From: an uncultured Alphaproteobacteria bacterium | GTDB taxonomy: Bacteria; Pseudomonadota; Alphaproteobacteria; JAJFIK01 | Length of the DNA: 64,000 nt | Assembly: GCA_964474635.1 (NCBI GenBank) | Contig: CAYYTT010000001.1 | Span: forward strand, 15,930 to 79,929 | Reading direction: 5' to 3' | Shown here: positions 4,403 to 22,162 of the stretch, one piece after another | Layout: the number at the start of each line of letters is the position of its first letter | Numbering within the stretch: position 1 is the first letter of the stretch | Program-made: the position numbers and the translations under genes | Notes under the pieces: model-generated | Databases searched by the model: none | Seen by the model: only the letters and a program-made list of their open reading frames with translations | Told to the model about the DNA's origin: nothing

Positions 4403-6160
4403 ATGATCGCCATCCTTCTTCTGGCCCTTACGCCGCTTATCCCTGTGCCTGATCTTGGAGTGCTGACTCTCGGAGCGCCGGCCCTTGCGCAAACCGTGGG
4501 TCCCGGATCTCCAGTGCCGCCGGCCGCGCAGCCCCAAGACCCGCGCGAGCGCCTGCGCGTCCCCAGGCCACCCGATCCCCAGCCCGAGTTGAACATTCCC
4601 GCCTTCCGGGGCCTGATCCCGCCGGGCAGCGAAGTGGTGCAGGTCACCCTGGGCCGAGTCGTCTTCGAAGGCGCCACCGTCTTTGACGACACCGCCCTGG
4701 CGGCGCCGTTTCAGCCCCTTTTCGGCCAGCAGATCGCGCTTGCCCAGGTCTATGCCGCCGCCGCCGAGCTCCAGGCCCGGTATCGGGCAAAGGGGTATGT
4801 CCTGACACGGGTCGTGGTGCCGGCCCAACGCATCGACCGGGGCACCATACGCATCCGCGTGGTCGAAGGCTTCATCGATGAGGTGCTGATCGAGGGGGAA
4901 GTCGGATCGGCCCGCCGGCAGATTGAGCGGACGATGGCGCATCTGACGCGCCTGCGCCCCGTGCGCAACCGGGATCTTGAACGCTACCTCCTGCTCGCCA
5001 ACGACATTCCGGGCATCTCGGCGACGGGGGTGCTGCGGCCGGGCACGGGCGAAGCCGGGGCGACACAGCTTCTGGTCCGTGTACGGCGCAAACGGGCCGA
5101 CGGCTTTGTGACCTTCAACAACCGGGAATCGGAATTGACCGGCCCCCTTGCCGCAGCCGTGGGCGCCGGGGTCAACAGCCTGACCCGCCTCGGCGACCGC
5201 CTGGAGGGCCTTTACTTCGTGACGCTCGACAGCCAGGAGCCGACCCGCTTCACCTCCGGCAATCCCTTCGAGCAGAGTTTCGTCTTCGCGGCCTATGAGG
5301 CCCGCCTGACGGGTGAGGGCACGACCGCGCGCGTGGAGGCAAGCTATGGCGTCAGCCGGCCGGGCGCGCGCCTCGCGCCGCTCGACATTGAAAGCCGGGT
5401 CACTCGCTTCAAGGGCGAAGTCCGACATCCGGTCGTCCGTACCCGCGCAGCCAGCCTGTCGGCGGCCCTGTCGCTCGAATCGATCCTGGAGCGCACGGGC
5501 ATCGCCGGCAGTCTGATTGCCCGCGACCGGCTGACCGTCCTCGGCGTCGATTTGGAGGCGGAGCTTCGCGACACGCTGTTCCGTGTCGCGCGCAACACCT
5601 TCAGCCTGTCCCTGCGCCAGGGGCTGGAGATCCTGGGAGCGTCCTCGCCGGATGAGGGCCTGTCGACGCGGCCCGAGGGATCATCCGTCTACACCACCAT
5701 CGAGGCTTATCTGTCGCGCACCCAGTCCTTGAGCCCGCGCGTGGAACTGTTCGGGGAAGCCATTGGCCACTATGCCTCGCGCACGCTTTTGAGCCAGGCC
5801 GAATTCCGCATAGGCGGGGACCGTTTTGGCCGCGCGTTCGATCCCTCACAGCTTGCCGGGGAGCATGGTTTTGGTGTCGGCGCGGAACTGCGCTTCAACG
5901 GCTCCACGGGCTGGCGTTTCGTGCCCGGCTATCAACTCTACGCCTTTGGGGATGCCGCGCAGGTGCGCAACACCGACCGGGGTTTTGAGCCACGGGCATC
6001 CATCTGGTCGACGGGCGCCGGCATCCGGACCAATCTGCGCCCCTCCTCATGGACCGACATTCTTCTCGATCTGGAATATGCGCACGGGGAGAGCTTCGGC
6101 TCGGGCCCGGATCTCGAAACACAGGATCAGGCCTATGTGCGTGTCACCGCCCAGTTCTGA
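4403..6160 (+). CDS. Two-partner secretion outer-membrane transporter (TpsB; ShlB/FhaC/HecB family)
   Basis: ORF 4292..6160. Signal-like MIAILLLALTPLIPV...APALAQ begins at ATG 4403. ShlB-type POTRA block VTLGRVVFEGATVFDDTALAAPFQPLFGQQIALAQVYAAAAELQARYRAKGYVLTRVVVPAQRIDRGTIRIRVVEGFI. Beta-barrel-like C-terminus ends ...YVRVTAQF. Start 4292 versus 4403 is unresolved. Confidence 0.85.
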   Translation: MIAILLLALTPLIPVPDLGVLTLGAPALAQTVGPGSPVPPAAQPQDPRERLRVPRPPDPQPELNIPAFRGLIPPGSEVVQVTLGRVVFEGATVFDDTALAAPFQPLFGQQIALAQVYAAAAELQARYRAKGYVLTRVVVPAQRIDRGTIRIRVVEGFIDEVLIEGEVGSARRQIERTMAHLTRLRPVRNRDLERYLLLANDIPGISATGVLRPGTGEAGATQLLVRVRRKRADGFVTFNNRESELTGPLAAAVGAGVNSLTRLGDRLEGLYFVTLDSQEPTRFTSGNPFEQSFVFAAYEARLTGEGTTARVEASYGVSRPGARLAPLDIESRVTRFKGEVRHPVVRTRAASLSAALSLESILERTGIAGSLIARDRLTVLGVDLEAELRDTLFRVARNTFSLSLRQGLEILGASSPDEGLSTRPEGSSVYTTIEAYLSRTQSLSPRVELFGEAIGHYASRTLLSQAEFRIGGDRFGRAFDPSQLAGEHGFGVGAELRFNGSTGWRFVPGYQLYAFGDAAQVRNTDRGFEPRASIWSTGAGIRTNLRPSSWTDILLDLEYAHGESFGSGPDLETQDQAYVRVTAQF

Positions 6161-9100
6161 CCGGGCCCCGCCCCAAAGCGCGAAGCGGCTGCGCCTTTTC
6201 ACGGCCAGCGCTCTCGTCGGCGCGCTGGTGTCCCTGTCCGTGCCGGCCGAGGCCGGACCCACCGGCGGAACGGTCGTCGCCGGCGACGCCCTGATTTCAA
6301 CGCCCGGCGTGGGCACGACCTTAATCGAACAATCGAGCGACCGGGTCGTCATCGACTGGGACAGCTTTTCCATCGCCCCCGGAGAAATCACCCAGTTCGT
6401 ACAGGGCAGTCCGGATGCGGTCGCCCTCAATCGGGTGACGGGCGGAGCCTTGAGTGAAATCTTCGGTACCCTGAGCGCCGATGGCACCCTCTTTCTGGTG
6501 AACCCCGCCGGCATCTTGGTTGGCCAAGGCGGCATCGTGGACGTCCATGGGCTCGTCGCCAGCACGAGCGGCATCACGAACGAAAACTTCATGGCCGGAC
6601 GGTTCACCTTCGACCGGCCGTCGCAGGTGCCCGGTGCCAGCGTGATCAACCGCGGCACGATCTCCGTTAAGCAGGCTGGCATGGCCGCCCTGGTTGCCCC
6701 CGGGGTCGAAAATGCCGGCGTCATCGTAGCCGATCTTGGCCGGGCGGTCCTTGCCGGCGCGCAGCGTTTCACGGTCGATTTGTACGGGGACGGGCTCATC
6801 CAATTCGATGCCGGTCCGGCGGACGATGGGGACGGATCCGGCCAAGCCTTCAGCGCCGTGAACAACGGCACGATCCGCGCGGACGGCGGCCGTGTCCTGA
6901 TGACCACCGACGCGGCCGAGGCGCTACTGGGCTCGGTTGTGTCCATGGACGGGGTGATCGAAGCCCGCAGCGTATCAACCGAAAACGGAACCATCATCCT
7001 GGCCGGCGGCGAGAACGGCGCGGTCGAGGTTTCCGGCAGGCTTGACGCGCCCCGGGGCGCCATCTCGATCGCCGGAGATGCGGTGACCCTTGATCCGGAC
7101 GCATCGCTGCGCAGCGCTCCCGGGGGCGCAATCGCCATCGCGGCAGCGCGTCTCGACGTAACAGGCGATGGCGCGCTCGGCACCCTGGCCGCCGCGCCGC
7201 TCCAGGATGCGGTCGCCTCGGGCGGCAAGGTGACCCTCGCCGCGCAATCCGCGCTCACGATTGCCCAAGACGGCCTGCAGGTGAGCGACGACGGCCCCGC
7301 CGGCGCCCTGAGCCTTGAAGGCACGGCAGTCGCCATCGGCGGGCCGGTCGATTTGGCGGCCTCGGATCTCACAATCAGGGCCGACAGCCTTGCTCTTGAT
7401 GCGGACCTGACCGCTGCCACCATCCAGGTCGAGACGATCAGCGCCGGCCGGGATATTCGCCTCGGGTCCGGTGATGGCGCCCCGGCCGCCGGGCCCGCCC
7501 TTGCCTTTGACGATCTGACCCGCTTGATCACGCCGGCGCTGACGCTCAGGGCACCGCGGGGCACGGTACGCCTCGGGTCGCTCGACCTTGCCGGCGCAGG
7601 CTTCGGCGCCCTGACCGTGTCCGGGGGCGCTGTTCGTCTGTCCGGGGACATTGTTACCGGCGGACGCGATTTCACGGTGGATGGACCGGCTGTTCTCGTT
7701 GGCGATACCCGCCTCGTCACCGATGGCGGCGCGGCCCGGTTCGCCGGCTCCCTGGACAGCGCGGCGCAGATCACCAGCGCGGATCTGCCGTGGGCCTTGT
7801 CGGTGGAGGCGGGCCCCGGCGCGGCGGCCTTTGAGGACACCATCGGCGGCGAAGGTCCCCTTGCCGCCTTGAGCGTGCGGGCGGGCGACCTTGCCGCAGG
7901 CCCGGTTACAACGCTCGGCGCGATTGATCTGACCGGGATGGCGGGCACGCTCCTTGCCGGCGCGATCACAAGCCAGGAGGGTCCGGTCACGGTCGCGGGT
8001 CCCATCCGTCTGGCTGCGGATACATCCGTGAGCAGCGCCGCTGCGGTCCGTCTCGATCCGGTCATGGGTGGCGGGTTCGATCTCACCCTGGCGGCCTCGC
8101 CGAATGGTCCGATCACTCTGGCCGGCGGCTCAGGCCTTGGTGTTTTGAGTGTTGTGCAAGGGCAGACCTTTACTGCCGAGAGCGCGCTTACCGCGTCAGA
8201 GCTCTCCGTGAGCGGACTGACAGGTGCCGCATTGTTTTTTGGGTCCATCGCGGTGGACGGTGCCGGCCGGATCGAGGGGCCCGGCGGCGCGGTGTTCGAT
8301 GGGGGCCCGGACGGTACATTTCGCTTTGCCGGCGGGCTGACGGCCCTCGACGGACCGGTCAGCGCGCGCGGAACCCTCCTGGCCGGCGGCGGCGGTCTCA
8401 CACTGGCCGATTTCACGCCCGTCGGTGCCGCTCGGCTGGAAGGCTTGGGCGGTGCGGCCATCGACCTTGGGACGGTGTCCGCCGCGCCGAACGCCGCCCT
8501 GACCATCGACGCGGCCGTGCTGAGCGTGGAGGGCCCCGTCACCCTGCCCGATGGGACACTGACGGTGCTGCGAGCCCTGGAGGCACGTGTCACCGGCCCT
8601 GTCACGGCCGAGACCGTCCGCATCGCATCGAACGGCGGTACGGTTGTCCTTCTCGGTGCGCTTGAGACCGTTTCGGCCGACCTCGGCGGCGCCGCGCAAC
8701 TGCGCCTTGAAGCCCCCATTCGGGCGGACGCCCTGCGCCTGGCCGATCTCGGGTCCCTCGTCAGTACCGATCCCATCGCTGCGGGCACCCTCTCGCTTGA
8801 GACCATCGAGATGGCCATGCTCGGCGGGCCTTTGACCGCGGACAGCATGAGTGTGGACGCGCCGGGGGGCACCATTACCGTTCTTGAGACGCTCGATGCG
8901 GGACGACTCTCGGTCCTGGAGGCGGGCTCGGCACGGTTCGCGGGCCCTGTCATGGCGGGCGAAGTGGACCTTACGCCGTCGGCCGGGTCGGTGGTCTTCG
9001 ATGGCCCCCTCGCGGCGGACACGCTGACGACCGGGCCGGGGCCGTTTTCCCTGGACCTGATCGGCGGCGTGCGGATCACCGAGCCGGTTACCATCGCGAA

Positions 9101-11405
9101 CACGGGCCTGCTGACCCTCGGGAAGGATGCGGGGGCGATCTCACGCTTTGACGGCGGGCTAACGGCCACGGAGGGCCCGGCCGCCCTGTCCGGATCCATC
9201 GAGGCGCCGGGGGTCAGTCTCACCCTCGCCGCCGCGACACTGACGGGCGATACCGTCCTCGATGTGGCGGGGGGCGCAGCCTCCGGCGGCGGCCCCTCCA
9301 TTGCGCTGTCCACCCTTAACGGCGCCGGCTTTGACCTTGCTGTGCGCGGTGGACCGGACACCGATGTAACCTTGGGCGGGGCCTCGGCGCTCGGCGATCT
9401 TTCGGTTTCCCGGGCGCGCAGCCTCAGCCTGACCGGGCCCACGCAAGCCGCATCGCTTACCACCCAAGATGTGACGACGCGCATTGAGGCCATCGCCCCG
9501 CTGATGCTCGCCAGCCTGACCATCGGACCGGGCCCCGCCTCGGTCGGCCTGACCGGCGGAAGCGTCTCCGTGACCGGCCCCGCGCGGATCGAGGCATCCG
9601 GCGGCACCGCGATCGGACGCGATCCTCAGAGCACGGCCACATTCTCCGAAGGCCTGAGGGCGCAGGCCGCCCCGGTGACGGTGCACGGGCGCATGAGTGC
9701 CGGTGGCAGCGGCCTTGCGCTTTCCACCGTGCGCATTGCCGGCGACACTGTCCTTGAGGGCACTAACGGCGCCGCGATCTCCCTGGGCGACGTGGCGGCG
9801 GCCGATCGCGCGGCCGCCCCGGATGTGCGCCTGTCCGCGGACCGGATCACCGCCGGCGCCCTCACGCTCGGCGAAGCCAGCGCCGCCGTTGCGGTGATCG
9901 CGGGATCCCAAGCGTCGTTCGCAGGTGCTGTTTCGGCCGACAGCCTGGCCCTTGAGGCCGCCGATGGTGGGCGCATCGATTTCGCCGGCCCCATGACCGT
10001 CCGTACCATAACCATTTCAGAAGGGGCCTATGCCCTTAATCTGACGGGCGGCGCGTCCATCGAGGCGGCCGCGGTCTTTGCCAATAGCGGCGGCGTCACC
10101 CTTGGCGATAAAGGCGTCTCGCAGGAGGGGCCCGGTGACCGCTTTGTCTTCGCCGGCGGTCTCACCTCGACGGCGTCCACAACGACGGTGGCGGGCACCG
10201 TTGAAACCCGCGACGCGCCCCTGGCACTGGCGGCCGTGCGCCTTGCCGGCGACAGCACCCTGACAAGTGCCACCAACAGTGGCGGCGGCGCGGATATCTC
10301 CGTCAGCGGACCAGTGGACAGCGCCGACAGGCCGGCAGCCTTGACCGTCACCGCCGGAATGGAAGGCCATGTGGTCCTTGATGGCCCCGTTGGCCAGACC
10401 GCTCCCTTGCACACCCTTGAGGTCTCGGCCGGACGCATTGCCGCGCGAGCCTCACGCGCCGCCGGTGACATCACCTTGAGGGCACGGGACCAAGCCGGCC
10501 AACCGGGCACCGTCGTCCTGGCCCAAAATCTGGAGACCGCCGGCGGCGATATCCTCATCGACGGTGCCGTGACCATCTCGGGTCAGACAGTCCGGATCGA
10601 CACGACCGGAGACGGATCCCCGGGCGGCGCGGTGACGCTTGGCGCGCAGGACACGGACATCGTCTTTACAGATCCGGACGCAATTTTGACCGTCACAGCC
10701 GGCGACGACGTCACCCTGGCGCGACTTGGTACCACCGAAACAGGTCCTTCCCAGGTCGACGTCGTGGCCGCCGGTTCCCTTCGATCGGCGGGCGGCACTG
10801 TCGCCGCGGCGCTCAGTTTTGCCGCCGGTGCATTCGATGAAGACCCGGCCTTCCGTCCGGACCAGGACATCCGGCTCGACGGCGATCTGACCGTCGCCGG
10901 GCCTGTCCGCCTGGCGGCAACCGGCGATCTTGTGCTTGAGGACACCTTGAACGCAGGCACCTTGAGAATTCTCATCGACGGTATTGCCCGCACCGGGCCC
11001 GATGCCCGCGTCAATGTGGACGATCTGCTGTTCATCGGCTCCTTAAACGACGGGTCTGGCTCCTCCGAACTCATCGGCTCCATACGCGGCATCGATACCG
11101 GAGACGCGGCGGGGCTTGCCTTCCAGACCGCCCTCCCGCTCAACCCGGACTTCCTATTCAACGGATGCGTCGTCGGCGTGCGCTGCGGCCAGGACGACCG
11201 GGTGATCCGCGGCATCAATGTTTTTGCACTGACAGTCCAGCCGGTTACCCAGGACCCCGAGCCCGACGGCCAGCGGTTTTCCGATCTCGGCAATTTCGAA
11301 CTGTACCGCAGTCTGGGTCTGACCCGCTCCTGGAGCGGGGATGACAAGGAGGATGGGGACGAGGAGAACGGGGACGGGGAAGGGGCCGGAAATGGCGATG
11401 AGTGA
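6135..11405 (+). CDS. Two-partner secretion exoprotein (TpsA; filamentous haemagglutinin-like, N-terminal TPS domain)
   Basis: ORF 5826..11405; the likely start is ATG 6135 (MCVSPP...LVSLSVPAEA signal peptide). TPS-domain motifs: VVIDWDSFSIAPGEITQFVQ, ALNRVTGG and FLVNPAGILVG (NPNGI-like). The rest is ~1600 aa of Ala/Gly/Thr/Leu/Val/Asp-rich beta-helix-type sequence. It overlaps the tpsB stop by 26 nt. Confidence 0.9.
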   Translation: MCVSPPSSDRAPPQSAKRLRLFTASALVGALVSLSVPAEAGPTGGTVVAGDALISTPGVGTTLIEQSSDRVVIDWDSFSIAPGEITQFVQGSPDAVALNRVTGGALSEIFGTLSADGTLFLVNPAGILVGQGGIVDVHGLVASTSGITNENFMAGRFTFDRPSQVPGASVINRGTISVKQAGMAALVAPGVENAGVIVADLGRAVLAGAQRFTVDLYGDGLIQFDAGPADDGDGSGQAFSAVNNGTIRADGGRVLMTTDAAEALLGSVVSMDGVIEARSVSTENGTIILAGGENGAVEVSGRLDAPRGAISIAGDAVTLDPDASLRSAPGGAIAIAAARLDVTGDGALGTLAAAPLQDAVASGGKVTLAAQSALTIAQDGLQVSDDGPAGALSLEGTAVAIGGPVDLAASDLTIRADSLALDADLTAATIQVETISAGRDIRLGSGDGAPAAGPALAFDDLTRLITPALTLRAPRGTVRLGSLDLAGAGFGALTVSGGAVRLSGDIVTGGRDFTVDGPAVLVGDTRLVTDGGAARFAGSLDSAAQITSADLPWALSVEAGPGAAAFEDTIGGEGPLAALSVRAGDLAAGPVTTLGAIDLTGMAGTLLAGAITSQEGPVTVAGPIRLAADTSVSSAAAVRLDPVMGGGFDLTLAASPNGPITLAGGSGLGVLSVVQGQTFTAESALTASELSVSGLTGAALFFGSIAVDGAGRIEGPGGAVFDGGPDGTFRFAGGLTALDGPVSARGTLLAGGGGLTLADFTPVGAARLEGLGGAAIDLGTVSAAPNAALTIDAAVLSVEGPVTLPDGTLTVLRALEARVTGPVTAETVRIASNGGTVVLLGALETVSADLGGAAQLRLEAPIRADALRLADLGSLVSTDPIAAGTLSLETIEMAMLGGPLTADSMSVDAPGGTITVLETLDAGRLSVLEAGSARFAGPVMAGEVDLTPSAGSVVFDGPLAADTLTTGPGPFSLDLIGGVRITEPVTIANTGLLTLGKDAGAISRFDGGLTATEGPAALSGSIEAPGVSLTLAAATLTGDTVLDVAGGAASGGGPSIALSTLNGAGFDLAVRGGPDTDVTLGGASALGDLSVSRARSLSLTGPTQAASLTTQDVTTRIEAIAPLMLASLTIGPGPASVGLTGGSVSVTGPARIEASGGTAIGRDPQSTATFSEGLRAQAAPVTVHGRMSAGGSGLALSTVRIAGDTVLEGTNGAAISLGDVAAADRAAAPDVRLSADRITAGALTLGEASAAVAVIAGSQASFAGAVSADSLALEAADGGRIDFAGPMTVRTITISEGAYALNLTGGASIEAAAVFANSGGVTLGDKGVSQEGPGDRFVFAGGLTSTASTTTVAGTVETRDAPLALAAVRLAGDSTLTSATNSGGGADISVSGPVDSADRPAALTVTAGMEGHVVLDGPVGQTAPLHTLEVSAGRIAARASRAAGDITLRARDQAGQPGTVVLAQNLETAGGDILIDGAVTISGQTVRIDTTGDGSPGGAVTLGAQDTDIVFTDPDAILTVTAGDDVTLARLGTTETGPSQVDVVAAGSLRSAGGTVAAALSFAAGAFDEDPAFRPDQDIRLDGDLTVAGPVRLAATGDLVLEDTLNAGTLRILIDGIARTGPDARVNVDDLLFIGSLNDGSGSSELIGSIRGIDTGDAAGLAFQTALPLNPDFLFNGCVVGVRCGQDDRVIRGINVFALTVQPVTQDPEPDGQRFSDLGNFELYRSLGLTRSWSGDDKEDGDEENGDGEGAGNGDE

Positions 11406-14397
11406 TCTGCGCATTATGGGCCTTGCTTTCGCCGGCCTTGCGATCAGCGTGCTGACGGGCTGCTCGGGTGCACTCTCACCGGCGGATGGATCGCGCACGG
11501 CGGACAGCGACATCGTCGATCTTGGCGCCAATGCCCTGGGTGAGCGCTGCCGTCTGCGTGAAGACAAACACGTGGCCCGCGCCGCAGGGGAACGCCATTA
11601 TACGATCCAGTGCGGGGACTGGAGCACACCGAGTGCCCGCCTCGTCCAGGTTGCCGAGGACGCGGAAACGGGCCCGGGCTCAAGCCTGTGGCAGCGGGAG
11701 GTTACGAGCCGCCTTTTGTGCGGCGCCGAGGAAGACGCCCTGGTGCTGGGCGACCGCCCTGCCCGGCTGCATCGGTGCCGTCTGCGCCGGGGCGGCTGGC
11801 CCATGCTGGCCCTGATCGTTGGACTGCCCGACCAGGCCCTCCTGATGCAGACGATCCCCTCGGGCCTCGGGGTTGCCGAAGCCGCCCTCGCCCATATCGC
11901 CGGTCTGGAGGCCGGCGCCGTGGGCGACGCCGGGCCGCGGGGCACCCGGTCCCGTTCCATCGAGCTTCTCGAGCTGGCCCTGCGCGACCAGTTGTTTTCG
12001 GCCGGCGACATTCGGGCCTATGAAGAGCTACTCGACGTGGCCCAGTACTACAACAGCGTGGGCAATTTCATCGCGTCGGAACGCTTTTACCGGGATGCCT
12101 TAAGCATCCTGCGCAAAGTGGTGCCGCCGGACGATCCGGTCCTTGCCGACCCGTTGACCCGCCTCGCCCTCGCCTTGAGCAATCAGGGCAAGGTTACCGA
12201 AGCCGAAGCCCTGTTCAAAACCCTGGATGGCTTGAGCGCCGGCGCGCTTGACCCGCTCACGGTCCCGCGCCTGCGCATCGCCCGCGCCTCCCACGAGGTC
12301 AACCGCAATCGCTGCCGCGCCGCGTTGCGCGAGCTTCAGGCCGGCCAGGCCCGTCTTATCGAAATCGCCAACAGTGCCAGCGGGTCCGAAGTGCAGATCC
12401 TGGCCGGTGGCGCCGACGCGGCGGCGGTGGAACTGGCCCTTAGCGGCGCGCTCGAAAGCGCGATCATGCTGTGCCTCAACGATCTCGATGCGGCCGATAA
12501 GGCCGCCGACCGGGCCATCGCGATCCTGACGGACACGCCCCAGGCACCGCGCGACTGGCGGCCGGTGTTCCTGTCGCTGCGCGCGGAAATCCTGCGCCGG
12601 CGGCGCAGTCTGGACAGCGGCGAGGACGACCTGGAGCGGGCCTTGAGGGATCGCCGGGTGCTCTACGACCGCTCGCGCCTGGAGGGGCTCGACTATCTTT
12701 ATCTGGGCGGGCTCAACCGTGAGGCGGGCCGCCGGGACGACGCGCTGGAGAATTTTCGCCGGGGTGTCTCGGTGCTGCGCGAGACGAATGAGGGGGTCAC
12801 GCTCGACCAGGTCTTGCCCTTCCTGCGCCTCCTGAACGAGGAGGCAGGCCGGGACCCGGCCCGGGCACAGACGCTTCATGCGGAGATGTTCGCGGCTGGA
12901 CAAATCGTGCGTAACTCCCTCACGGCACGGACCATCGCGGCGACCTCCGCGCGTCTTGCCGCCGGCGATCAGGCTGTCTCCACCGTGATCCGCGATCTCC
13001 AGGAAGCGCGCCGGCGGATTGGCGATCTTAACCGGGCCATTGATGCGGCCCAGGCCCGCACAGACGCGGGCGGACGGGTCATTGAAATTGCGGCCATGAT
13101 CGAAGACCGGGACGCGGCGCGCCAGGAGGCAAGCGCCCTTGAAGAGGAGGTGCAGGCCGCGGCGCCGGCCTATAACCAACTCGTCAGCAGACCCCAGGAT
13201 CTGGTGAGCGCCCAGGCGGCCCTGGCCGCCGATGAGGCCATTCTCCAGGTTCTGATCGGCGAGACCTCCAGCCTTGCGTTTTTCGTCACCCGTGACACGG
13301 TCGAGCCCCATTTCATCGGCTTTGGTTCGGGCGAAGCCGCCTTCGCCGTAGCGAAATTGCGGGCAGGCCTGACCATCGGCACCGGCCAGCGCCTGGGCGC
13401 CTTTGATTTGAAACTTGCCCATGGCCTGTACCGCGCCATCCTCGGCCCCTTCGAGCAACGCCTTGCCACGGTTCGGCATTTGATCACTGTGCCAACGGGC
13501 CCACTCGCGAGCCTGCCCTTTGCCATTCTTGTAACGCAACGCCCGCAAGGGCGCGGCGTGCGCGCGGACACCTATCGCAAGACCGCCTGGCTCGGCACCG
13601 CCCATGCCATCTCCGTGGCCCCGTCAGTACGTTCTTTAGTCGATCTGCGCACCCTGCCCCAGGCTCCGAAACGCAGCCGTACACTGATCGGTTTTGGCGA
13701 TTTTCAGGGACCGCAAAATGCCCCAGCCGTCCCGATTACGCCGCTGTGCGAGTCCCGGGTCCAGTGGATGGCCCGCAATGCGCCGCCCCTGCCGGAAACA
13801 CGGGCCGAGCTTGAGGCCATCGCGAGGGGATTGCCGGACGGACAGACGGACCTGCGCCTTGGCGAGGCCTTCACGGAGGCGGCCGTCCAAGGGGCCGCCC
13901 TTGAAGACTACCGGATCGTTTATTTTGCGACCCATGGCCTGATGCCCGCCGATGTGGGCTGCCGGACCGAACCCGCCCTTGTCACATCGGGTTTTCGCCA
14001 GGATACGCCGGACCGGGACGGTCTTCTCACCTCAAGCGACGTGCTGGGCCTGCGGATGAATGCGGATCTGGTTGTCTTGTCGGCCTGTAACACCGGCGGC
14101 GGGGACGGCTCCGGCGGTGAGGGGCTGAGCGGTCTGGCTCGCAGCTTTTTTTATGCCGGTGCGCGCGGCATGCTGGTCAGCCACTGGTATGTGGAGAGCG
14201 CGGCGACCCAGCGGCTGATGACGGATGTCTTCGCACGCCTTGCCGACAATCCCGCCCTGGGCAGCGCCGAAGCGCTGCGCCAGGCCCAGGACGCTTTGTT
14301 TTTGCAAGAGCGCGGGTCTGCGATTGAAGCCCATCCAGCCTTCTGGGCGGCCTTCACGGTCGTGGGCGATGGGGCCCGGCCGGTGCGGGTGCGCTGA
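11392..14397 (+). CDS. TPR-repeat CHAT-domain (caspase-fold) protein, predicted lipoprotein
   Basis: ORF 11341..14397; likely start MAMSDLRIMGLAFAGLAISVLTGC, with lipobox L-T-G-C. Central TPR-like repeats (YYNSVGNFIASERFYRDALSILRK...). C-terminal CHAT hallmarks: IVYFATHGL (His) and DLVVLSACNTGGGDG (Cys), then LARSFFYAGARGMLVSHW and HPAFWAAFTVVGDG. The start lies 14 nt before the tpsA stop. Confidence 0.9.
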   Translation: MAMSDLRIMGLAFAGLAISVLTGCSGALSPADGSRTADSDIVDLGANALGERCRLREDKHVARAAGERHYTIQCGDWSTPSARLVQVAEDAETGPGSSLWQREVTSRLLCGAEEDALVLGDRPARLHRCRLRRGGWPMLALIVGLPDQALLMQTIPSGLGVAEAALAHIAGLEAGAVGDAGPRGTRSRSIELLELALRDQLFSAGDIRAYEELLDVAQYYNSVGNFIASERFYRDALSILRKVVPPDDPVLADPLTRLALALSNQGKVTEAEALFKTLDGLSAGALDPLTVPRLRIARASHEVNRNRCRAALRELQAGQARLIEIANSASGSEVQILAGGADAAAVELALSGALESAIMLCLNDLDAADKAADRAIAILTDTPQAPRDWRPVFLSLRAEILRRRRSLDSGEDDLERALRDRRVLYDRSRLEGLDYLYLGGLNREAGRRDDALENFRRGVSVLRETNEGVTLDQVLPFLRLLNEEAGRDPARAQTLHAEMFAAGQIVRNSLTARTIAATSARLAAGDQAVSTVIRDLQEARRRIGDLNRAIDAAQARTDAGGRVIEIAAMIEDRDAARQEASALEEEVQAAAPAYNQLVSRPQDLVSAQAALAADEAILQVLIGETSSLAFFVTRDTVEPHFIGFGSGEAAFAVAKLRAGLTIGTGQRLGAFDLKLAHGLYRAILGPFEQRLATVRHLITVPTGPLASLPFAILVTQRPQGRGVRADTYRKTAWLGTAHAISVAPSVRSLVDLRTLPQAPKRSRTLIGFGDFQGPQNAPAVPITPLCESRVQWMARNAPPLPETRAELEAIARGLPDGQTDLRLGEAFTEAAVQGAALEDYRIVYFATHGLMPADVGCRTEPALVTSGFRQDTPDRDGLLTSSDVLGLRMNADLVVLSACNTGGGDGSGGEGLSGLARSFFYAGARGMLVSHWYVESAATQRLMTDVFARLADNPALGSAEALRQAQDALFLQERGSAIEAHPAFWAAFTVVGDGARPVRVR

Positions 14398-14425
14398 CGA
14401 TCAAGCCTTTCGCGGTGCGAGATCG

Positions 14426-16516
14426 TTACTTGCTGGTCATGATGATGAAGGCTCCGGTTTCCCCGCCGCGCAGGCGCTCCAGATGGCCGGCAACGAGCCG
14501 GTCATCCGGACGCTGACGGGCAAGGTCCTCAAACGCCATGAGAGCCGCCGGACTTTCCCGGTCCAGCGCCTGGAAGGCCTCCCGGTAGGCCGCCTGATAG
14601 GGGCTGGCGGCATCGAGCGCATCGATGGGCTCATAGGTAATGAGGGCATCCTGCTTACCGTGGAGCACCAGGGTGCCCGCCGGGCGCACGGGCCGATCCG
14701 GGGCCGCGTCCACCGTGGCCTTTGAGAGCAGGGCCCGTGTGCCAAGCGCCTTGTTGGCCGCCTCCAGACGCGCGGCCGTGTTCACGACATTGCCGATGGC
14801 GGTGTAGTCGAAACGATCGCGGCCGCCAAAATTGCCGACGAATGCAGGCCCTGTATCAAGGCCCACCCGCGTGCGCCCGAACCGATAGCCCTGGCTCATC
14901 CAACGCGCACGGAAGGCCTCCCCGAACTCAACGAGCGCCGCCGCGCAGGCCACGGCGCGGCCGGCGTCGTCCTCGGAGGCTTCCGGCGCGCCGAAAAAGC
15001 ACATGGACCCATCGCCCAGAAATTTGTCGATCGTCCCGCCATGGGCAAGGATAATGCCGCCAAGCCCATCGAAGTAGTCATTGATGATCGTCCCGATAAG
15101 GTCCGGAGGCAGATACTCCGAGCTTGACGTGAATTGCTCGATATCGGTGAACATGACCGTGATCGTGCGCCGCTCACCGCCAAGCTTCAACCGGCTCGGA
15201 TCCCGGTCGAGGCGCGAGACGACCCCCGGCGGCACGTAGCGGGCAAAGGCCCGTCGGATCTGATTGCGCAAAAGGCGCTCCCGCCGGCCCACGAACGCGC
15301 TCGCGCCCGCCGCCGCAATCATGAAGGCCAGGACCGGCGTGACCAGCGGCACCATGACCTCCGCGCGGGCAAAGAGCGCGAAACACAGAACGCCAAACGC
15401 GCTCAGCACCAGCATCGACAAGAGGATCTTGAGCCACAGGGACAGCCGCGACATGGACAGCAGCATGCCCACCAGCGCCAGCGCGAGACCGATGGCCGCC
15501 TCCCCAGCCAGTCCGGGCTCCAGAATGCGCCGCCCGTCCAGGATCTGGGACAGGATATGGGCGTGGATTTCCACGCCGGGCATTTCCTCAACGCCGGGGA
15601 TGGCGGTCAGGGCAGTCCGGTGCCGGTCGATATCGACGAGCACGGGACCGATCAGGGCGATTTTGTCCTTGAAGAAAACGGGCGGCAGGATCGGCACTAC
15701 CTGGGCGTCGACTACCAGGAACGGTTTTTCGTCCGGACGCTGCGAATTAAAGCCACGCCACGCGATGCGGTAGCGCCGCTCCTTGGGCAGATCGACGCCC
15801 AGGCGATGGGCCACCGCCGCGCCCAGTTGAAATTGCGCTTTCTCGCCCTCGTCCCAACGGGGATAGGCATAACGCACCGTACCGTCCTGCCGGTCGCGCA
15901 GCAGCATGGCGTAACCGGGCGTCAGATCCCCGACAAACCAGGAGAGGACATCGGCCCGCTTGCCCGTCGTCCCAACATCGGCCCCGGCCCATCCGGGAAT
16001 GACGGGCGTCTTGACGGTGCGCATGACCTCGCGAAGCAATTCGTCCTTGCGCGGATCCGTTTCATTGTCGAGGACGAAATCGATGCCGATGGCCCGCGCC
16101 CCGGCCTCGTCAAGGCGTGTGATAATCTGTGCCAGGAGTTCTCGGTCGAATGGCAAACGGCAGGACAGGGCATCGAGAGTGTCGTCGGTCACGCCGATGA
16201 TGACGATGTTCTCGTCCTGGCGCGCGTCGGGCGCCGCGAGGAAACGAATGTCGCGGGTCCACTCGTCAACCCCCTTCAACACTTCGGCGATGTGCGTGAG
16301 TGCAAAGGGAACGCAGACGGCGGCAAGCAGGATCAGGCCGACCCATGCACCGACCGCGAGGCGCAGCGTGCGGCGCGGTTCCCGGTCAACGGGCGAGCTG
16401 CCCGCCCCGCCCTCGCCCCTTGCGTCCCCGCCCGGTTCTTGCTCGTCGGCCCCGACCATCTCCGCCCGCCTCCCCGCGTCTCGGCTCCAAGGACCGCCAG
16501 TATAGTGATCGGGCAA
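14426..16516 (-). CDS. CHASE2 sensor domain-containing class III adenylate/guanylate cyclase
   Basis: 696-aa ORF with an N-terminal TM. CHASE2-like IVIIGVTDDTLDALSCRLPFDRELLAQIITRLDEAGARAIGIDFVLD, followed by three TM helices. Cyclase core: ITVMFTDIEQFT, GTIDKFLGDGSMCFFGAP, RVGLDTGPAFVGNFG, FDYTAIGNVVNTAARLE. Start M1 (16516) versus M20 (16459) is unresolved. Confidence 0.9.
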   Translation of the reverse strand: MPDHYTGGPWSRDAGRRAEMVGADEQEPGGDARGEGGAGSSPVDREPRRTLRLAVGAWVGLILLAAVCVPFALTHIAEVLKGVDEWTRDIRFLAAPDARQDENIVIIGVTDDTLDALSCRLPFDRELLAQIITRLDEAGARAIGIDFVLDNETDPRKDELLREVMRTVKTPVIPGWAGADVGTTGKRADVLSWFVGDLTPGYAMLLRDRQDGTVRYAYPRWDEGEKAQFQLGAAVAHRLGVDLPKERRYRIAWRGFNSQRPDEKPFLVVDAQVVPILPPVFFKDKIALIGPVLVDIDRHRTALTAIPGVEEMPGVEIHAHILSQILDGRRILEPGLAGEAAIGLALALVGMLLSMSRLSLWLKILLSMLVLSAFGVLCFALFARAEVMVPLVTPVLAFMIAAAGASAFVGRRERLLRNQIRRAFARYVPPGVVSRLDRDPSRLKLGGERRTITVMFTDIEQFTSSSEYLPPDLIGTIINDYFDGLGGIILAHGGTIDKFLGDGSMCFFGAPEASEDDAGRAVACAAALVEFGEAFRARWMSQGYRFGRTRVGLDTGPAFVGNFGGRDRFDYTAIGNVVNTAARLEAANKALGTRALLSKATVDAAPDRPVRPAGTLVLHGKQDALITYEPIDALDAASPYQAAYREAFQALDRESPAALMAFEDLARQRPDDRLVAGHLERLRGGETGAFIIMTSK

Positions 16517-16603
16517 AGACTTTCGGAAATGCCCATTCTATGCTCGCGCGGAAGATGCAAAACGCGGCGCCGCGAACACCCCGTTGACCCATGGGAGGGA
16601 ACG

Positions 16604-17506
16604 ATGGCCGAAACGGTTTCACAGCCTTTGGCGGGCACACTCCGCGCGCTGCTCATGGCCGGCGGCCCTTCGATGGCCTTGGCGATGGCGATGGCCATGG
16701 CACCGGCACAAAGCGCTCTTGCCCTGCAGGACAGCCCGGCATCTGCCGCCGGGGCCGCCGACGAAGAGGCCCAAAGCCTTGTCGTGGTGCGCAGTTCGGC
16801 GCAGGCGCTCGGCGTTGGCGATGTCCTGCAAAGTGGACAGATCGTGCGCTTGGCGGAAAACGAGGAAATCGAAATCCTGTCCCAGCGCGGTGTGAGCGTC
16901 GTTTATCGCGGCCCCTTTGAAGGGCCGGTGAGCGGGCGCGGCGACGCGGTTGGACGGTCGCGCCTGAAGTTGCTGCGCGATGCGATTTTCGGTCTTGATG
17001 AGGGCACCCGCGTCATGGGCGGCACCCGCCAGCTGGAGCGCCCACCCCTGACGGACGCCGATAACGGGACGGACGACGCACCAGGCGATCCGGGTGAAGA
17101 AGACCCCGCGCCCCTGGGCCCGGCGGGAGAAGCAATCCTGATCGACCTGGCCCAAGGGGGAACCTGGTGCGCCGTCGATGGCGTCGATCTGTGGTTGATG
17201 CGTGCCGAATACGGCCGTGCCCGTGCACAGCTGAGCGATGGGACCGCGCGCGCGCCCTTGACCTGGAGCTATTTCGCGGAGGCCCTGCCCTGGCCAGACG
17301 CGGTGCCGCGCACGGACGGTGCCCGCTACTCGGTGACATTCGACAATGGGCCAACCTTGAGGTTCGACCTGCGTGTGGTCGCGCCCGCAGCCGATCCGGC
17401 GGGCACACTCATTGTACTGGCGCGCAGCGGCTGCCGGTCCCAAGTCGCCCGCGCCGCCGCCGCTCTTGAAGGCACGCCCGATAACGGCGACGGGCCAACC
17501 CGCTGA
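16604..17506 (+). CDS. Secreted hypothetical protein (signal peptide; short FecR-like stretch), divergent partner of the CHASE2 cyclase
   Basis: This is the 3' part of track ORF 15134..17506. ATG 16604 is preceded by GGGAGGGA. The N-terminus MAETVSQPLAGTLRALLMAGGPSMALAMAMAMAPAQSALA looks like a signal peptide. SLVVVRSSAQALGVGDVLQSGQIVRLAENEEIEILS resembles a FecR-type beta segment. The C-terminal half has two Cys. No family could be assigned by eye. Confidence 0.65.
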   Translation: MAETVSQPLAGTLRALLMAGGPSMALAMAMAMAPAQSALALQDSPASAAGAADEEAQSLVVVRSSAQALGVGDVLQSGQIVRLAENEEIEILSQRGVSVVYRGPFEGPVSGRGDAVGRSRLKLLRDAIFGLDEGTRVMGGTRQLERPPLTDADNGTDDAPGDPGEEDPAPLGPAGEAILIDLAQGGTWCAVDGVDLWLMRAEYGRARAQLSDGTARAPLTWSYFAEALPWPDAVPRTDGARYSVTFDNGPTLRFDLRVVAPAADPAGTLIVLARSGCRSQVARAAAALEGTPDNGDGPTR

Positions 17507-17592
17507 CTCTGACTTTGGCGCTGCCTCTGGCGCTGAGAGAGCACAGGCTCGCCTTTCTGCGAACTCGGGCCTTTGACCCGGCATAGAAGAGT

Positions 17593-18225
17593 TTACAGCT
17601 CGATGTCCCGTGACCCCGGCGGGGTGGTGTCGTCCGTGGCCGGCTTTGCCGTGCGCACGGCGACCAGATAGCGCGCCTGGTCCTCACTCGCGACCCGCTC
17701 GATGGTGCGCACCAGACAGCGGAAGCGCCGGACGATGATGCGCTCGCCCGCACCGCCGCACAGAAACCCGGTCCGCGAGGCCGTCAGAATGCGGAGCGCA
17801 AAGCGCAGCTCCGGGCAGACCCCGGCAAAGGTGACCAGATAGGGCCGGCGCACCGACGCGATGAAAATCGCGTGGCGCCGGTCGATCACCTGGAAATTCC
17901 GCAGCAAACGCAGATTGATGCAGTCCCGGCGCGGCTCCGGCCAGGTCGGATCGGCCTTTAAGGGACGCGGCGGATCGCCAGCATCCTGCCCCACCGTTTG
18001 CCGGGGCACGGGCGTGTAGGACATGGCCGGGAGCGGTGTGCGGGTCTCCAGTTCGCCCTGCCTCAGATGATCGCCCACGGCATCGGCCAACAGACCATGC
18101 ATCCTGGACCCGTCGGCAAGGCCCGGAAAGGGTCCGAATGCTATCAGCACACCAACGAAGAGGCCGACCATCGTGTCGAGACCGAAACGGCGCTCACGTC
18201 TTGGTTCCATGACATCGGCTCCCAT
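17593..18225 (-). CDS. Hypothetical membrane-anchored/secreted protein
   Basis: ORF 17593..18360 trimmed to the internal Met (MGADVMEPRRERRFGLDTMVGLFVGVLIAFG, an N-terminal hydrophobic helix), because the longer form overlaps the ilvA start region. The C-terminal part has four Cys (CINLR...GVCPELRF...GFLCGG...RCLV). Family not recognised with confidence. Confidence 0.5.
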   Translation of the reverse strand: MGADVMEPRRERRFGLDTMVGLFVGVLIAFGPFPGLADGSRMHGLLADAVGDHLRQGELETRTPLPAMSYTPVPRQTVGQDAGDPPRPLKADPTWPEPRRDCINLRLLRNFQVIDRRHAIFIASVRRPYLVTFAGVCPELRFALRILTASRTGFLCGGAGERIIVRRFRCLVRTIERVASEDQARYLVAVRTAKPATDDTTPPGSRDIEL

Positions 18226-18387
18226 GACATTTTCAAACCGAACGCCTGTCTGGTGGACGGCGCGGTGACATCGCTGCTGCCCGCTTCGCCGAACCGTATC
18301 CTCAGGCGGGCATGGCGCCCTGTCGAGCCCCAACCAAATGCGTGCCCGGCACGCGCCCACGTTCCTTTTGCGAGTCGGGAGGGCCCC

Positions 18388-19596
18388 ATGGCCGTAACGC
18401 TAAACGATATCCGCCGGGCCCAAACGGTCATTGACGGCGCGGTGGAGAATACACCCTTCGTTTTAAGTCGCACACTTTCGGGCCTTTTGGGTGCGCAAAT
18501 TCATATAAAATTTGAGAATTTGCAGTTCACAGCCTCGTTTAAGGAGCGAGGAGCCCTCAATAAGCTCGAAAGTCTGTCTTTCGAGGCCCGAAATGGGGGT
18601 GTCATCGCCATGTCGGCCGGCAATCATGCCCAAGGCGTCGCTTATCATGCCCAAAGGCTCGGCATTCCCGCGACCATCGTCATGCCCCGTGCGACGCCTT
18701 ACGTGAAAGTACGCCAGACCGCCCATTTCGGCGCGCGCATCATTTTGGAGGGCGACACGCTCAGCGAAGCCTCCGACTTCGCCCACGCCATGGCCACACG
18801 CGAGGGGCTGGTGTTCGTCCACCCCTATGACGATGACCATGTGATTGCCGGCCAGGGCACCCTTGCCCTCGAAATGCTCGATGCCGTCCCGGACCTTGAT
18901 GTCCTGGTGGTCCCCATCGGCGGGGGGGGCCTCATTGGCGGCATGGCCACGGCGGCGAAGGCCATCCGGCCGGACATCCGGGTCGTCGGCGTGGAAGCCG
19001 CCCTTTATCCATCCATGAGTGCCGCCCTGCGCGGTGTGCAGGGCCTGTGTGGCGGGACGACCATCGCCGAGGGCATCGCGGTGAAACAGGTGGGCGCCAA
19101 GCCACTGGAAATCGCACGCCGGCTCGTCGACGAGGTGATCACCGTCGAGGAACGCGACCTGGAGCGGGCGGTCAATCTGCTGCTCACCATCGAGAAAACC
19201 GTGGCCGAGGGGGCCGGCGCGGCGGGCCTGGCGGCCCTGATGGCCCGTCCGGAGCTGTTCCGTGGGCGCAAAGTGGGCATTCCCCTGTGCGGCGGCAATA
19301 TTGACCCGAGGCTGCTTGCCTCCGTGATCATGCGCGAGTTGATGCATGACGGGCGGATCGCGCGCATCGGTGTGGACGTGGCGGACTCGCCCGGTCAGCT
19401 CGCACGGGTTGCCGGCATCATCGGCGAATACGGTTGCAGCGTGATCGAGGTGTCCCATCACAGACTGGCCCTCGACATGTCGGCAAAGCATGCGACCCTG
19501 GAAATGATGATAGAGGCCCGGGACAAGGATCAGGTCCGCGACATTGTCGCCCGCCTGCGCCAGGACGGGTTTGCGGTGCGCGATGTCTCGATTTAA
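18388..19596 (+). CDS. ilvA: Threonine ammonia-lyase (threonine dehydratase), PLP-dependent, with C-terminal ACT-like domain
   Basis: ORF 17998..19596; start MAVTLNDIRRAQTVIDGAVENTPF at 18388. PLP-lysine motif FENLQFTASFKERGALNKL. Glycine loop AMSAGNHAQGVAYHA. C-terminal regulatory segment IARIGVDVADSPGQLARVAGIIGEYG. Confidence 0.9.
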   Translation: MAVTLNDIRRAQTVIDGAVENTPFVLSRTLSGLLGAQIHIKFENLQFTASFKERGALNKLESLSFEARNGGVIAMSAGNHAQGVAYHAQRLGIPATIVMPRATPYVKVRQTAHFGARIILEGDTLSEASDFAHAMATREGLVFVHPYDDDHVIAGQGTLALEMLDAVPDLDVLVVPIGGGGLIGGMATAAKAIRPDIRVVGVEAALYPSMSAALRGVQGLCGGTTIAEGIAVKQVGAKPLEIARRLVDEVITVEERDLERAVNLLLTIEKTVAEGAGAAGLAALMARPELFRGRKVGIPLCGGNIDPRLLASVIMRELMHDGRIARIGVDVADSPGQLARVAGIIGEYGCSVIEVSHHRLALDMSAKHATLEMMIEARDKDQVRDIVARLRQDGFAVRDVSI

Positions 19597-19805
19597 CGGG
19601 GCTTGGCGGCCAGGGGGCGTCCTGTCGCGATCGCGTGACCACGCGTGCGCACGGCCCCTTTGATTTGGGTTTTTGGGCCGGGTTTTGTTTGTCATGGCGG
19701 GGCGACCTGCCTATCTGTGGGTGTCGCGGGTTGGGTGGATTGGTCCAGGATCCGGTGGGTGCATCGGACCTTGCGCAGACCGGCCAAGGAGGGAGGCGGC
19801 AAAGC

Positions 19806-20981
19806 ATGCATGTAGCGGTGATCGGCGGGGGGTTGATCGGTCTGAGCACGGCTTGGGCGCTGAGCCGTTGCGGTGTCTCGGTCACCGTGTTCGAGAGCGG
19901 GCGCATGGGGCGCGGGGCCAGTTGGGCCGCCGGGGGCATGCTCGCCGCCCATGTGGAAGATGAGGCCTGCGATCCCGCCTTTCTGACCCTGGCCCGCGCG
20001 AGCCAGGACCTGTGGCCCGGTTTCGCCGCCGCCCTGACCGAGGCAACCGGCCTGCCGCTCGAGGTTGACCAGGCGGGCACTCTCGTTGCCGCGTTTGACC
20101 CGGTTACGGCCGACCGCTGGCGCGATCTGTGCCGCTCGGACCGTCTGCGCAGCGATCTCCACTGGCTCTCACCCCGGGAGGCCCGGGGCCGCGAGCCGGG
20201 ACTGGCGCGCGACTGCCTCGGCGCGGCCTTCAGCCCGCGCGATCATCAAATCGACCCGCGCGCGGCCGTAAGCGCCCTCATCAAGGCCTGCCAGGCCTCC
20301 GGTGTCACCCTGGCCGAGGACCGTCCCGTGCTGGCGATTGATGCGCGCGGCGGCCGGGTGACGGGCGTCATCACGCCGGAAGGGCGCATCGGCTGCGATG
20401 CGGCGGTGCTGGCGGCTGGCGCCTGGAGCGGACGCATTGAGGGCCAGGGCCCCGGTGCCGCCATGCCGGTCCGGCCCATCAAGGGTCAGATGGCCTGCCT
20501 TGTCTGGGATCAGCCGGCACCGCCGCCGCGCCATGTCATCTGGGGCCCCGGCCTTTACGCCATCCCGCGCGCCGACGGGCGCCTTGTCCTTGGCGCGAGT
20601 GTCGAAGATGTGGGTTTTGATCCGCGCCTGACGGCCGGTGCGGTCGGCCGCCTGCTCCAGGCGGTGGCCCGCACCCTGCCCGGCGCGGAGGCCTGCGCGC
20701 TTCAGGAAATGTGGGCCGGTTATCGCCCCGCCGCCCCTGACCGGCGCCCGGTCATCGGCCCTGGCGCGCTTGACGGACTGACCATCGCCACGGGCCATCA
20801 CCGCAACGGCATCCTGCTGGCGCCGGTGACGGCCGAGATCGTGCGCGACCTCGTTCTTGGCGCCGTACCGCGCCACAACCTGACGGCCTTTTCCCCTGCC
20901 CGGTTCTGGACCGCCGGCCCCCGCCCTCGCGTGACAGCGCCGTCCGGCGCGCGCACCGAGACCGGGGTCCGCATGGCCTGA
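19806..20981 (+). CDS. thiO: FAD-dependent glycine oxidase-like oxidoreductase (ThiO/DAO family)
   Basis: ORF 19434..20981; start MHVAVIGGGLIGLSTAWALSRCGVSVTVFE (Rossmann GxGxxG) at 19806. GASWAAGGMLAAHVE and GHHRNGILLAPVTAE are typical of ThiO. No thiS or thiG is adjacent, so the symbol is tentative. Confidence 0.7.
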   Translation: MHVAVIGGGLIGLSTAWALSRCGVSVTVFESGRMGRGASWAAGGMLAAHVEDEACDPAFLTLARASQDLWPGFAAALTEATGLPLEVDQAGTLVAAFDPVTADRWRDLCRSDRLRSDLHWLSPREARGREPGLARDCLGAAFSPRDHQIDPRAAVSALIKACQASGVTLAEDRPVLAIDARGGRVTGVITPEGRIGCDAAVLAAGAWSGRIEGQGPGAAMPVRPIKGQMACLVWDQPAPPPRHVIWGPGLYAIPRADGRLVLGASVEDVGFDPRLTAGAVGRLLQAVARTLPGAEACALQEMWAGYRPAAPDRRPVIGPGALDGLTIATGHHRNGILLAPVTAEIVRDLVLGAVPRHNLTAFSPARFWTAGPRPRVTAPSGARTETGVRMA

Positions 20982-21012
20982 CGGGCCCACCACCGCCGCG
21001 ATACGGCGACAG

Positions 21013-22071: not shown

Positions 22072-22162
22072 TCGGTCCTGACCGGAGAGCCTCCCGGCTC
22101 CGCGGACAGACCACGCGCAGAGCGCCAAGGACACCAACGAAACGCCGGGGAGCACACCGCCC

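Follow-up and report, generated by a model that had tools for sequence, protein, structure and literature searches.

A predicted exported TPR-CHAT protease encoded in a conserved gene module with two-partner secretion and CHASE2 cyclase genes

The closest solved relative of the protein analyzed here is DdvA of Myxococcus, described in 2024 as a periplasmic TPR-CHAT protein in which H862 and C907 are named as the catalytic dyad (PMC11506125). [quoted passage not shown] The gene considered here lies at positions 11392 to 14397 on the + strand of a 64,000-nucleotide stretch of DNA from an uncultured alphaproteobacterium. This stretch (the window, whose positions are used throughout) is 65% G+C and its nearest relatives are proteobacterial. 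According to the open reading frame (ORF) list, the translation, Pfam and the NCBI gene call, the gene encodes a 1001-residue protein with a predicted lipoprotein signal peptide, an N-terminal domain (ND) with four cysteines, TPR-like repeats and a CHAT caspase-fold domain. It resembles DdvA in its predicted periplasmic, membrane-tethered TPR-scaffold-CHAT architecture, and DdvA is its top Foldseek match (E 2.8e-11), with the His/Cys dyads aligned. The two proteins differ in that the window protein has a lipobox anchor, no anti-sigma domain and no transmembrane helix, carries the extra four-Cys N-terminal domain, has two-partner secretion (TPS) proteins and a CHASE2 cyclase as partners, and matches the whole Pfam CHAT model, whereas DdvA lacks three helices of the CHAT consensus. 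A DdvA-like anti-sigma factor was considered and rejected, as the N-terminus consists of a 23-residue signal peptide followed by ND and no sigma factor was found among the neighbours scanned. The first-pass annotation of this DNA had taken the characterised bacterial CHAT proteases to be cytoplasmic, a view that the description of DdvA has made outdated. The Craspase TPR-CHAT protein (Csx29, type III-E CRISPR) and the separases share the TPR-CHAT fold and dyad (Foldseek E ~1e-10) and are proteases allosterically activated by a partner. Unlike the window protein, they lack a signal peptide and reside in the cytoplasm or the nucleus, where Cas7-11/RNA or securin controls them, partners not found here. 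Membership in a Craspase was likewise rejected: there is no Cas7-11 (gRAMP) or Csx30/Csx31 among the neighbours, the CHAT protein has no PADLOC match, and it bears an export signal.

Three further systems may be similar in mechanism. PorU, the type IX C-terminal signal peptidase, is an outer-membrane cysteine peptidase of the caspase fold (clan CD) and cuts a conserved C-terminal element off its cargo; it belongs to the gingipain-like peptidases, another secretion system and another phylum, and is likened here by description only. SphB1, an autotransporter and one of the proteases that mature the Bordetella TPS exoprotein FhaB, is a lipoprotein. The other two proteases compared here, DegP and CtpA, are like SphB1 serine proteases of unrelated folds that are encoded outside the TPS operon and come with no nucleotide cyclase. 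The likeness to FhaB is that of a TPS exoprotein whose C-terminal part is periplasmic and is reported to be removed by envelope proteases, DegP among them (PMC8263021). The CHASE2 cyclases CyaK, CyaD1 and CyaD2 of Sinorhizobium meliloti reportedly need the outer-membrane protein NsrA to respond to a protein signal (PMC7529298, PMC13001267). They are class III cyclases reported to act through a Crp-like regulator, and a Crp/Fnr gene flanks a related module in Sphingobium (see below); no CHAT protease or TPS pair is reported for that system. The FhaB-protease, NsrA-cyclase and PorU analogies would all be likenesses of mechanism rather than signs of family membership.

The frame of the CHAT gene opens at 11341 and stops at 14397, and NCBI gene call P0001 corresponds to the 1001-residue form from ATG 11392 (100% identity, 100% coverage). 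This ATG is preceded by the purine-rich stretch GGGGAAGGGG. The N-terminus of the protein is MAMSDLRIMGLAFAGLAISVLTGC, followed by SG. The predicted type II (lipoprotein) signal peptide (11392-11463, +) starts with a short n-region that contains Arg7, continues with an h-region of 14 uncharged residues and ends in the lipobox LTGC at positions 21-24, with Ser at +2; the codon for Cys24 is 11461-11463 and LTGC24 fits the consensus [LVI][ASTVI][GAS]C. An alternative ATG lies 51 nt upstream (11341-11391, +) and would add MTRRMGTRRTGTGKGPE..., giving an unusually long and highly basic n-region; the mature lipoprotein is the same with either start.

A scan of species-representative genomes yielded at least 595 relatives across Alpha-, Beta- and Gammaproteobacteria, and the best 80 of these, plus metagenome loci, were surveyed with tblastn and hidden Markov models (HMMs). 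Signal peptides were called by our own heuristics and by reading the sequences by hand, rather than by SignalP or LipoP. Among the ND-type homologues in the best 80 of at least 595 loci, all intact N-termini are of the Sec type, with about 15 lipoboxes and about 25 type I signals after manual curation. Among 75 full-length cluster representatives, sampled independently of these loci, the lipobox is strict in 36 and relaxed in 19. The other 20 include several more lipobox-like N-termini, ~8 clear type I signals and four N-terminally truncated gene calls, and no member with a complete N-terminus is without a signal among the 75. Asp at +2 is rare (2 of the 55 lipobox representatives). Since a Sec signal, lipobox or other, recurs in homologues of less than 50% identity, the lipobox is not a chance pattern. 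The first-pass annotation had reported the lipobox, which is borne out by these samples, and had made its case depend on a start upstream of it; conservation of a Sec signal in every ND-type homologue with an intact N-terminus places the true start there. It had also regarded export as unusual for this fold. In the ND family export is instead the rule, and it extends to 25 of 30 related TPR-CHAT proteins without ND, as judged heuristically. Sequence evidence thus strongly supports Sec export of the CHAT protein by way of a lipoprotein signal peptide; given such a signal, it is expected to work in the periplasm, and it is probably anchored at the inner face of the outer membrane. By the E. coli sorting rule, which is a guide only in this organism, Ser at +2 suggests sorting to the outer membrane, near the TPS transporter. 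Many lipoprotein members carry a conserved stretch, approximately C-[AT]-x-P-P-P-[ED]-A-Y, directly after the lipid-modified Cys (among them P0063, P0068, P0098, P0101, P0102, P0114, P0117, P0158, P0164 and P0167); the window protein is without it and has C-SGALSPADG instead.

The CHAT domain (13411-14370, +; residues 674-993) matches Pfam CHAT (PF12770) over positions 2-289 of the 289-position model (E 1.1e-58; 199.5 bits, where the cut-off is 24). The putative catalytic residues, His848 (codon 13933-13935, motif FATHG) and Cys899 (codon 14086-14088, motif LSACNT), are both kept by 83 of 84 related ORFs, as they are by 44 of 44 ORFs of the ND type, in line with the dyad first noticed in the window sequence alone. 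Whether they stand at catalytic positions was checked by profile alignment, in which they fall on H862 and C907 of DdvA, the dyad named by its authors (PMC11506125). DdvA (8rot_B) is the sole clearly significant match of the CHAT-domain profile in the PDB (E 4.6e-7); Craspase chains follow at E 0.015-0.03, and the Cys strand is aligned with their TPR-CHAT chains as well. A PDB search with the single CHAT-domain sequence gave no match, and one with the full-length profile was swamped by TPR proteins. The protein is a CHAT family member by sequence, dyad and fold, and its protease activity is predicted.

Between ND and the protease domain lie TPR-like helical repeats (residues 188-487) and a long helical hairpin (489-590), together at 11953-13161 (+) according to Pfam, AlphaFold2 and Foldseek; Pfam TPR_12 matches residues 215-276 with 41 bits against a cut-off of 30.1. 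Word-indexed protein searches were saturated by TPR words and returned 19-21 proteins, even with a profile. The AlphaFold2 model, built from 21 sequences, has a mean pLDDT of 74 and a pTM of 0.71, with pLDDT mostly 80-96 in the CHAT domain. It lays out a beta-rich domain at about residues 40-175, helical repeats at 188-487, the hairpin at 489-590 and the CHAT domain up to residue 992. Foldseek against the PDB placed DdvA first, followed by Craspase TPR-CHAT and the separases, with global TM-scores of only 0.2-0.5. On this model the protein has a predicted TPR-CHAT architecture, with helical repeats and scaffold N-terminal to CHAT and a corresponding fold similarity. The earlier description of some 600 residues of TPR-like and coiled sequence before the protease stands for the repeats and the hairpin, and fails for residues ~40-175, which form the beta-rich four-Cys domain.

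ND (11509-11916, +) is a beta-rich domain of ~145 residues, delimited with an iterated HMM, that contains four invariant Cys (C53, C74, C110 and C129). It is found in 46 of 86 CHAT ORFs by iterated HMM. Calls across loci are the union of ORF-based and three-frame HMM scans, the latter being less sensitive. Against 1.84 billion cluster representatives the ND profile retrieved 233 proteins with E up to 0.001; the domain is nearly always near the N-terminus (~residues 30-200), and the full-length proteins have about 1000 residues. In an alignment of 40 divergent members the four Cys are the sole invariant columns, as expected for structural disulfides formed in an oxidising compartment outside the cytoplasm. 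No Pfam or NCBIfam model matches ND. Modelled alone by AlphaFold2 it has a pLDDT of 84.5, with eight strands and two helices, and its fold matches are weak (EagT6, DcrB, PsbP and LpqN-like; E at least 3.6e-3, TM ~0.35).

The CHAT gene follows a TPS gene pair. The first, tpsB (4403-6160, +), encodes the outer-membrane TPS transporter, identified from its translation and from Pfam matches to POTRA_2 (1.1e-19) and ShlB (1.8e-16); its ORF opens with TTG at 4292 and has its first ATG at 4403. The second, tpsA (6135-11405, +), encodes a 1756-residue protein with a signal peptide and matches to Pfam TPS (8.5e-32) and NCBIfam TIGR01901 (4.9e-19), in which the TPS secretion domain (residues 39-299) is followed by a long Ala/Gly-rich region. 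A TPS-domain TpsA beside a POTRA/ShlB TpsB identifies the pair as two-partner secretion (type Vb). The tpsB stop overlaps the tpsA start by 26 nt, and the tpsA stop (TGA, 11403-11405) lies beyond the CHAT start, an overlap of 14 nt. In 22 of 25 related loci the CHAT start is spaced -43 to +13 nt, often -1 or -4, from the end of a large ORF upstream, in most cases tpsA. The tight coupling proposed in the first-pass annotation from the position of the CHAT start inside the end of tpsA therefore holds across loci, and it is strongly supported that chat stands third in a tpsB-tpsA-chat operon whose genes are translationally coupled. A toxin/immunity reading of the contact-dependent inhibition (CDI) type was rejected, there being no immunity-sized cytoplasmic gene after tpsA and no toxin domain detected in it, where TPS was the one domain recognised. 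The L049 and L050 loci (Limibaculum and Paracoccaceae metagenome-assembled genomes) have CHAT proteins without detectable ND, with lipobox-like N-termini and with TpsA/TpsB upstream. Either a second subfamily of TPS-linked CHAT proteins or a very divergent ND may account for them.

The C-terminal part of TpsA contains two conserved elements. A Cys loop, FNGCVVGVRC (11157-11186, +), has the consensus N-G-C-x-[IV]-x(3-7)-C in partner TpsAs and is also found in the TpsAs of 10 other loci, including that of Sphingobium herbicidovorans (L086), where tpsA does not adjoin the CHAT gene. The second, FSDLGNFELY (11277-11306, +), belongs to a family motif G-N-E-x-[LI]-[WY] that occurs 40-100 residues after the Cys loop and, in most partner TpsAs, ends the protein or comes close to its end (as in FSSWGNEALWQ and TGAGNEDLW). 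The window copy is ~85 nt upstream of the CHAT start and is thus more than a ribosome-binding site. A stretch of 24-40 residues separates the motif from the stop in the window and at L001, L042, L068 and L085, and the Sphingobium tpsA, with no CHAT gene after it, still ends in ...INGCFIGSGASC...TGAGNEDLW...; these two observations argue for conservation at the level of the protein. The Cys loop and the GNExLW motif together are a candidate substrate element, judged by their sequence conservation.

Downstream, in convergent orientation to the CHAT gene and so on the other strand, is a gene for a CHASE2 sensor joined to a class III adenylate/guanylate cyclase (14426-16516, -; Pfam CHASE2 4.2e-30, Guanylate_cyc 3.2e-14). 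It begins 29 nt past the CHAT stop; its ORF opens with TTG at 16516 and has its first ATG at 16459. Hydrophobic segments flank CHASE2 on both sides in the translation, the layout of a CHASE2 receptor cyclase. Homologues adjoin the CHAT gene in ~24 related loci, nearly always directly downstream and on the same strand, and the window copy looks inverted relative to this usual order. Residues 444-590 of the cyclase match the Pycsar cyclase (PycC) models in PADLOC (best E 7.3e-26), which probably reflects the shared class III cyclase fold only.

The fifth gene, P5 (16604-17506, +), encodes a secreted 300-residue protein with two conserved Cys, detected with an HMM built from homologues at 24 loci (E 6.7e-16) and carrying a predicted type I signal peptide (...APAQSALA|LQ). 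At those 24 loci the homologues, of ~240 residues with a signal peptide, are encoded between CHAT and CHASE2; the family ranges from 240 to 300 residues, or ~25-30 kDa. P5 has no match in Pfam, NCBIfam or PADLOC. The gene is hidden within a mechanically called 790-residue ORF (15134-17506, +), which also runs opposite to the cyclase gene. The sole plasmid match to P5, from Azospirillum ramasamyi (L088; NZ_CP029832.1, locus 13911-16990), is a weak one, with E 1e-4 and 29% identity; its annotation is DUF4384, and its gene adjoins an adenylate/guanylate cyclase gene, with a Crp/Fnr gene nearby. By sequence P5 may be a distant DUF4384 relative, though one that Pfam does not detect.

Gene linkage was assessed in flanks of 8 kb, within which long tpsA genes hide TPS domains, and many of the surveyed loci are draft metagenome-assembled genomes with frameshifts. 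TPS genes occur within 8 kb in 35 of 45 ND-type loci, compared with 3 of 39 CHAT loci without ND (Fisher p = 3e-11); the corresponding counts for the CHASE2 cyclase are 22 of 45 and 3 of 39 (p = 3e-5). Seven ND loci have neither, and three of these (L002, L006 and L007) begin at a contig edge. At L034, an ND locus with no TPS or CHASE2 match, an edge-truncated upstream ORF carries a TpsA-type C-terminal motif. The order in the window is tpsB, tpsA and chat on the + strand, the inverted cyclase gene on the - strand and P5 on the + strand. In Sphingobium herbicidovorans pMSHV (locus 11797-26742) it is Crp/Fnr, CHAT, CHASE2, a hypothetical protein (P5), a ShlB-family gene and a 2092-residue TpsA. 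The Crp/Fnr regulator there lies directly upstream of the cluster, a position consistent with a cyclic-nucleotide output; a tblastn search with the Sphingobium gene found no equivalent in the window or the other loci. Database labels for these genes are limited to "CHAT domain-containing protein" and "CHASE2 domain-containing protein". The linkage strongly supports a conserved five-gene envelope module made up of TpsB, TpsA with its Cys loop and GNExLW motif, the ND-TPR-CHAT protein, P5 and an inner-membrane CHASE2 cyclase. The first-pass annotation had not connected the cyclase and P5 with the CHAT gene. Each of the five products either passes through the periplasm or has a domain in it. Our literature searches found no publication that links CHAT with TPS or with CHASE2 or that describes the five-gene module. 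For CHASE2 with CHAT the sole yield was a survey of cyanobacterial metacaspases, which mentions a metacaspase-CHASE2 fusion, and a survey of polymorphic toxins describes caspase-like releasing peptidases inside toxins and no separate CHAT gene in TPS operons. The parts of the module are of known types; their combination and compartment are unstudied in the literature found.

The clustering of an exported CHAT protease with a TPS pair and a membrane cyclase suggests a route from an event at the cell surface to an intracellular signal, one that has gone unstudied. In the reading that we prefer, to which we give a probability of roughly 0.45, a periplasmic protease processes a TpsA tail retained in the periplasm and the CHASE2 cyclase senses that this has happened. 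TpsA would keep its C-terminal tail in the periplasm while the remainder of the protein threads through TpsB, and the ND and TPR parts of the lipoprotein would bind this tail. The CHAT domain would then cut it, so that the exoprotein is matured or released. The periplasmic CHASE2 domain, perhaps by way of P5 or of the freed peptide, would register the cleavage, and the cyclase would turn it into a cyclic-nucleotide signal. The step at the TpsA tail has a precedent in the C-terminal prodomain of FhaB, which is reported to be degraded in the periplasm (PMC8263021, PMC4542190). The evidence supports localisation, fold and gene linkage; the substrate and the direction of the signal we infer. A more ambitious version, in which the five genes form a previously unrecognised envelope signalling pathway and cleavage of the TpsA tail activates the CHASE2 cyclase through the peptide or P5, seems to us doubtful.

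Several points weigh against processing of TpsA coupled to the cyclase. Everything beyond localisation, fold and gene linkage, including cleavage, the substrate and lipidation itself, is predicted from sequence. Protease activity is undemonstrated even in DdvA, the closest solved relative (PMC11506125). About half of the ND-type loci have no CHASE2 gene in their 8-kb flanks, and the link to the cyclase may thus be an optional one. The window's cyclase gene, read from the other strand, is not in the chat transcript. Where the GNExLW motif is at the extreme C-terminus of TpsA it overlaps the likely ribosome-binding site of CHAT, and there selection at the nucleotide level could contribute to its conservation. 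The signal-peptide calls, finally, are heuristic and manual.

The alternative that fares best assigns the protease to signalling. TpsA and TpsB would be a surface antenna, and CHAT would cut P5 or the periplasmic part of CHASE2 in the manner of a site-1 protease, switching the cyclase. The TPR-CHAT part of DdvA is proposed to cut the membrane-proximal linker of a signalling protein (PMC11506125), a self-cleavage on which this reading is modelled; P5 and CHASE2 are encoded directly downstream of the CHAT gene in most loci, and the S. meliloti CHASE2 cyclases reportedly rely on an outer-membrane partner. We nevertheless consider this possibility an unlikely one, for it leaves unexplained the conserved C-terminal motifs of TpsA, the tight translational coupling of tpsA and chat, and the 16 ND-type loci that have TPS genes and no detectable CHASE2.

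It is less probable still that the protein serves chiefly as a scaffold or chaperone in the periplasm, without proteolysis, its TPR and ND parts keeping hold of TpsA or TpsB in the course of secretion while the CHAT dyad stays at rest. Peptide binding is common for TPR domains, and in DdvA the dyad has a resting geometry and its mutants have no phenotype in the conditions tested (PMC11506125). The invariance of His and Cys in all 44 ND-type homologues, together with the full-length CHAT match, argues instead for selection on catalysis.

We regard as improbable, slightly more so than a scaffold, an outward-acting or defence factor, either a surface or released protease directed against foreign proteins or a DdvA-like phage sensor with an immune-nucleotide cyclase. 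DdvA controls a defence island (PMC11506125), surface exposure is known for some lipoproteins, and the cyclase resembles Pycsar cyclases at the level of the domain (PycC, E 7e-26). This match, however, spans the generic class III cyclase fold only; the CHAT protein, P5, TpsA and TpsB are without PADLOC matches, and neither a Pycsar-type effector nor cas genes were found among the neighbours examined. A defence-island reading was considered and set aside. Last, it is very unlikely that the start codon is wrong and the protein cytoplasmic, its lipobox a chance feature of an untranslated or mis-framed leader: there are GTG and TTG codons downstream of the lipobox and GC-rich DNA yields many spurious ORF extensions, but signal peptides are kept in homologues of less than 50% identity, four invariant Cys come just past the signal, and the NCBI gene call uses the same start.

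TPS systems are usually described as two-gene machines; here a large TPS subfamily comes with its own caspase-fold protease as well as a nucleotide cyclase and a small protein of the periplasm. If TpsA is indeed processed, type Vb secretion would gain in this protease a maturation enzyme of a new class, and the protease would provide a second, far more widespread setting of periplasmic CHAT proteases after DdvA. To our knowledge essentially no CHASE2 ligand has been described. The sole worked example is that of S. meliloti, in which a protein signal is reportedly relayed by an outer-membrane partner. Should the cyclase read the cleavage, the question of what CHASE2 domains sense could be put to a genetically compact system, this module; as a full pathway it would give the first defined bacterial input for CHASE2 and, for TPS, a built-in reporter of secretion or surface contact. 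Family models for ND and P5 would improve the annotation of several hundred sequence clusters.

Beyond P5 the window contains a DUF6491 ORF (17593-18360, -) and a threonine-dehydratase-like ORF with PALP and ACT domains (17998-19596, +). As they overlap on opposite strands, only one of the two can be a true gene, and neither belongs to the conserved module. Several long ORFs run opposite to or across the genes described above: one of 1186 residues in tpsA (6047-9607, -), one of 501 residues in the CHAT gene (12100-13605, -), and the 790-residue ORF (15134-17506, +) that crosses the cyclase gene. All three lie on the strand opposite a real gene and are shadow ORFs typical of DNA with 65-68% G+C, not genes.

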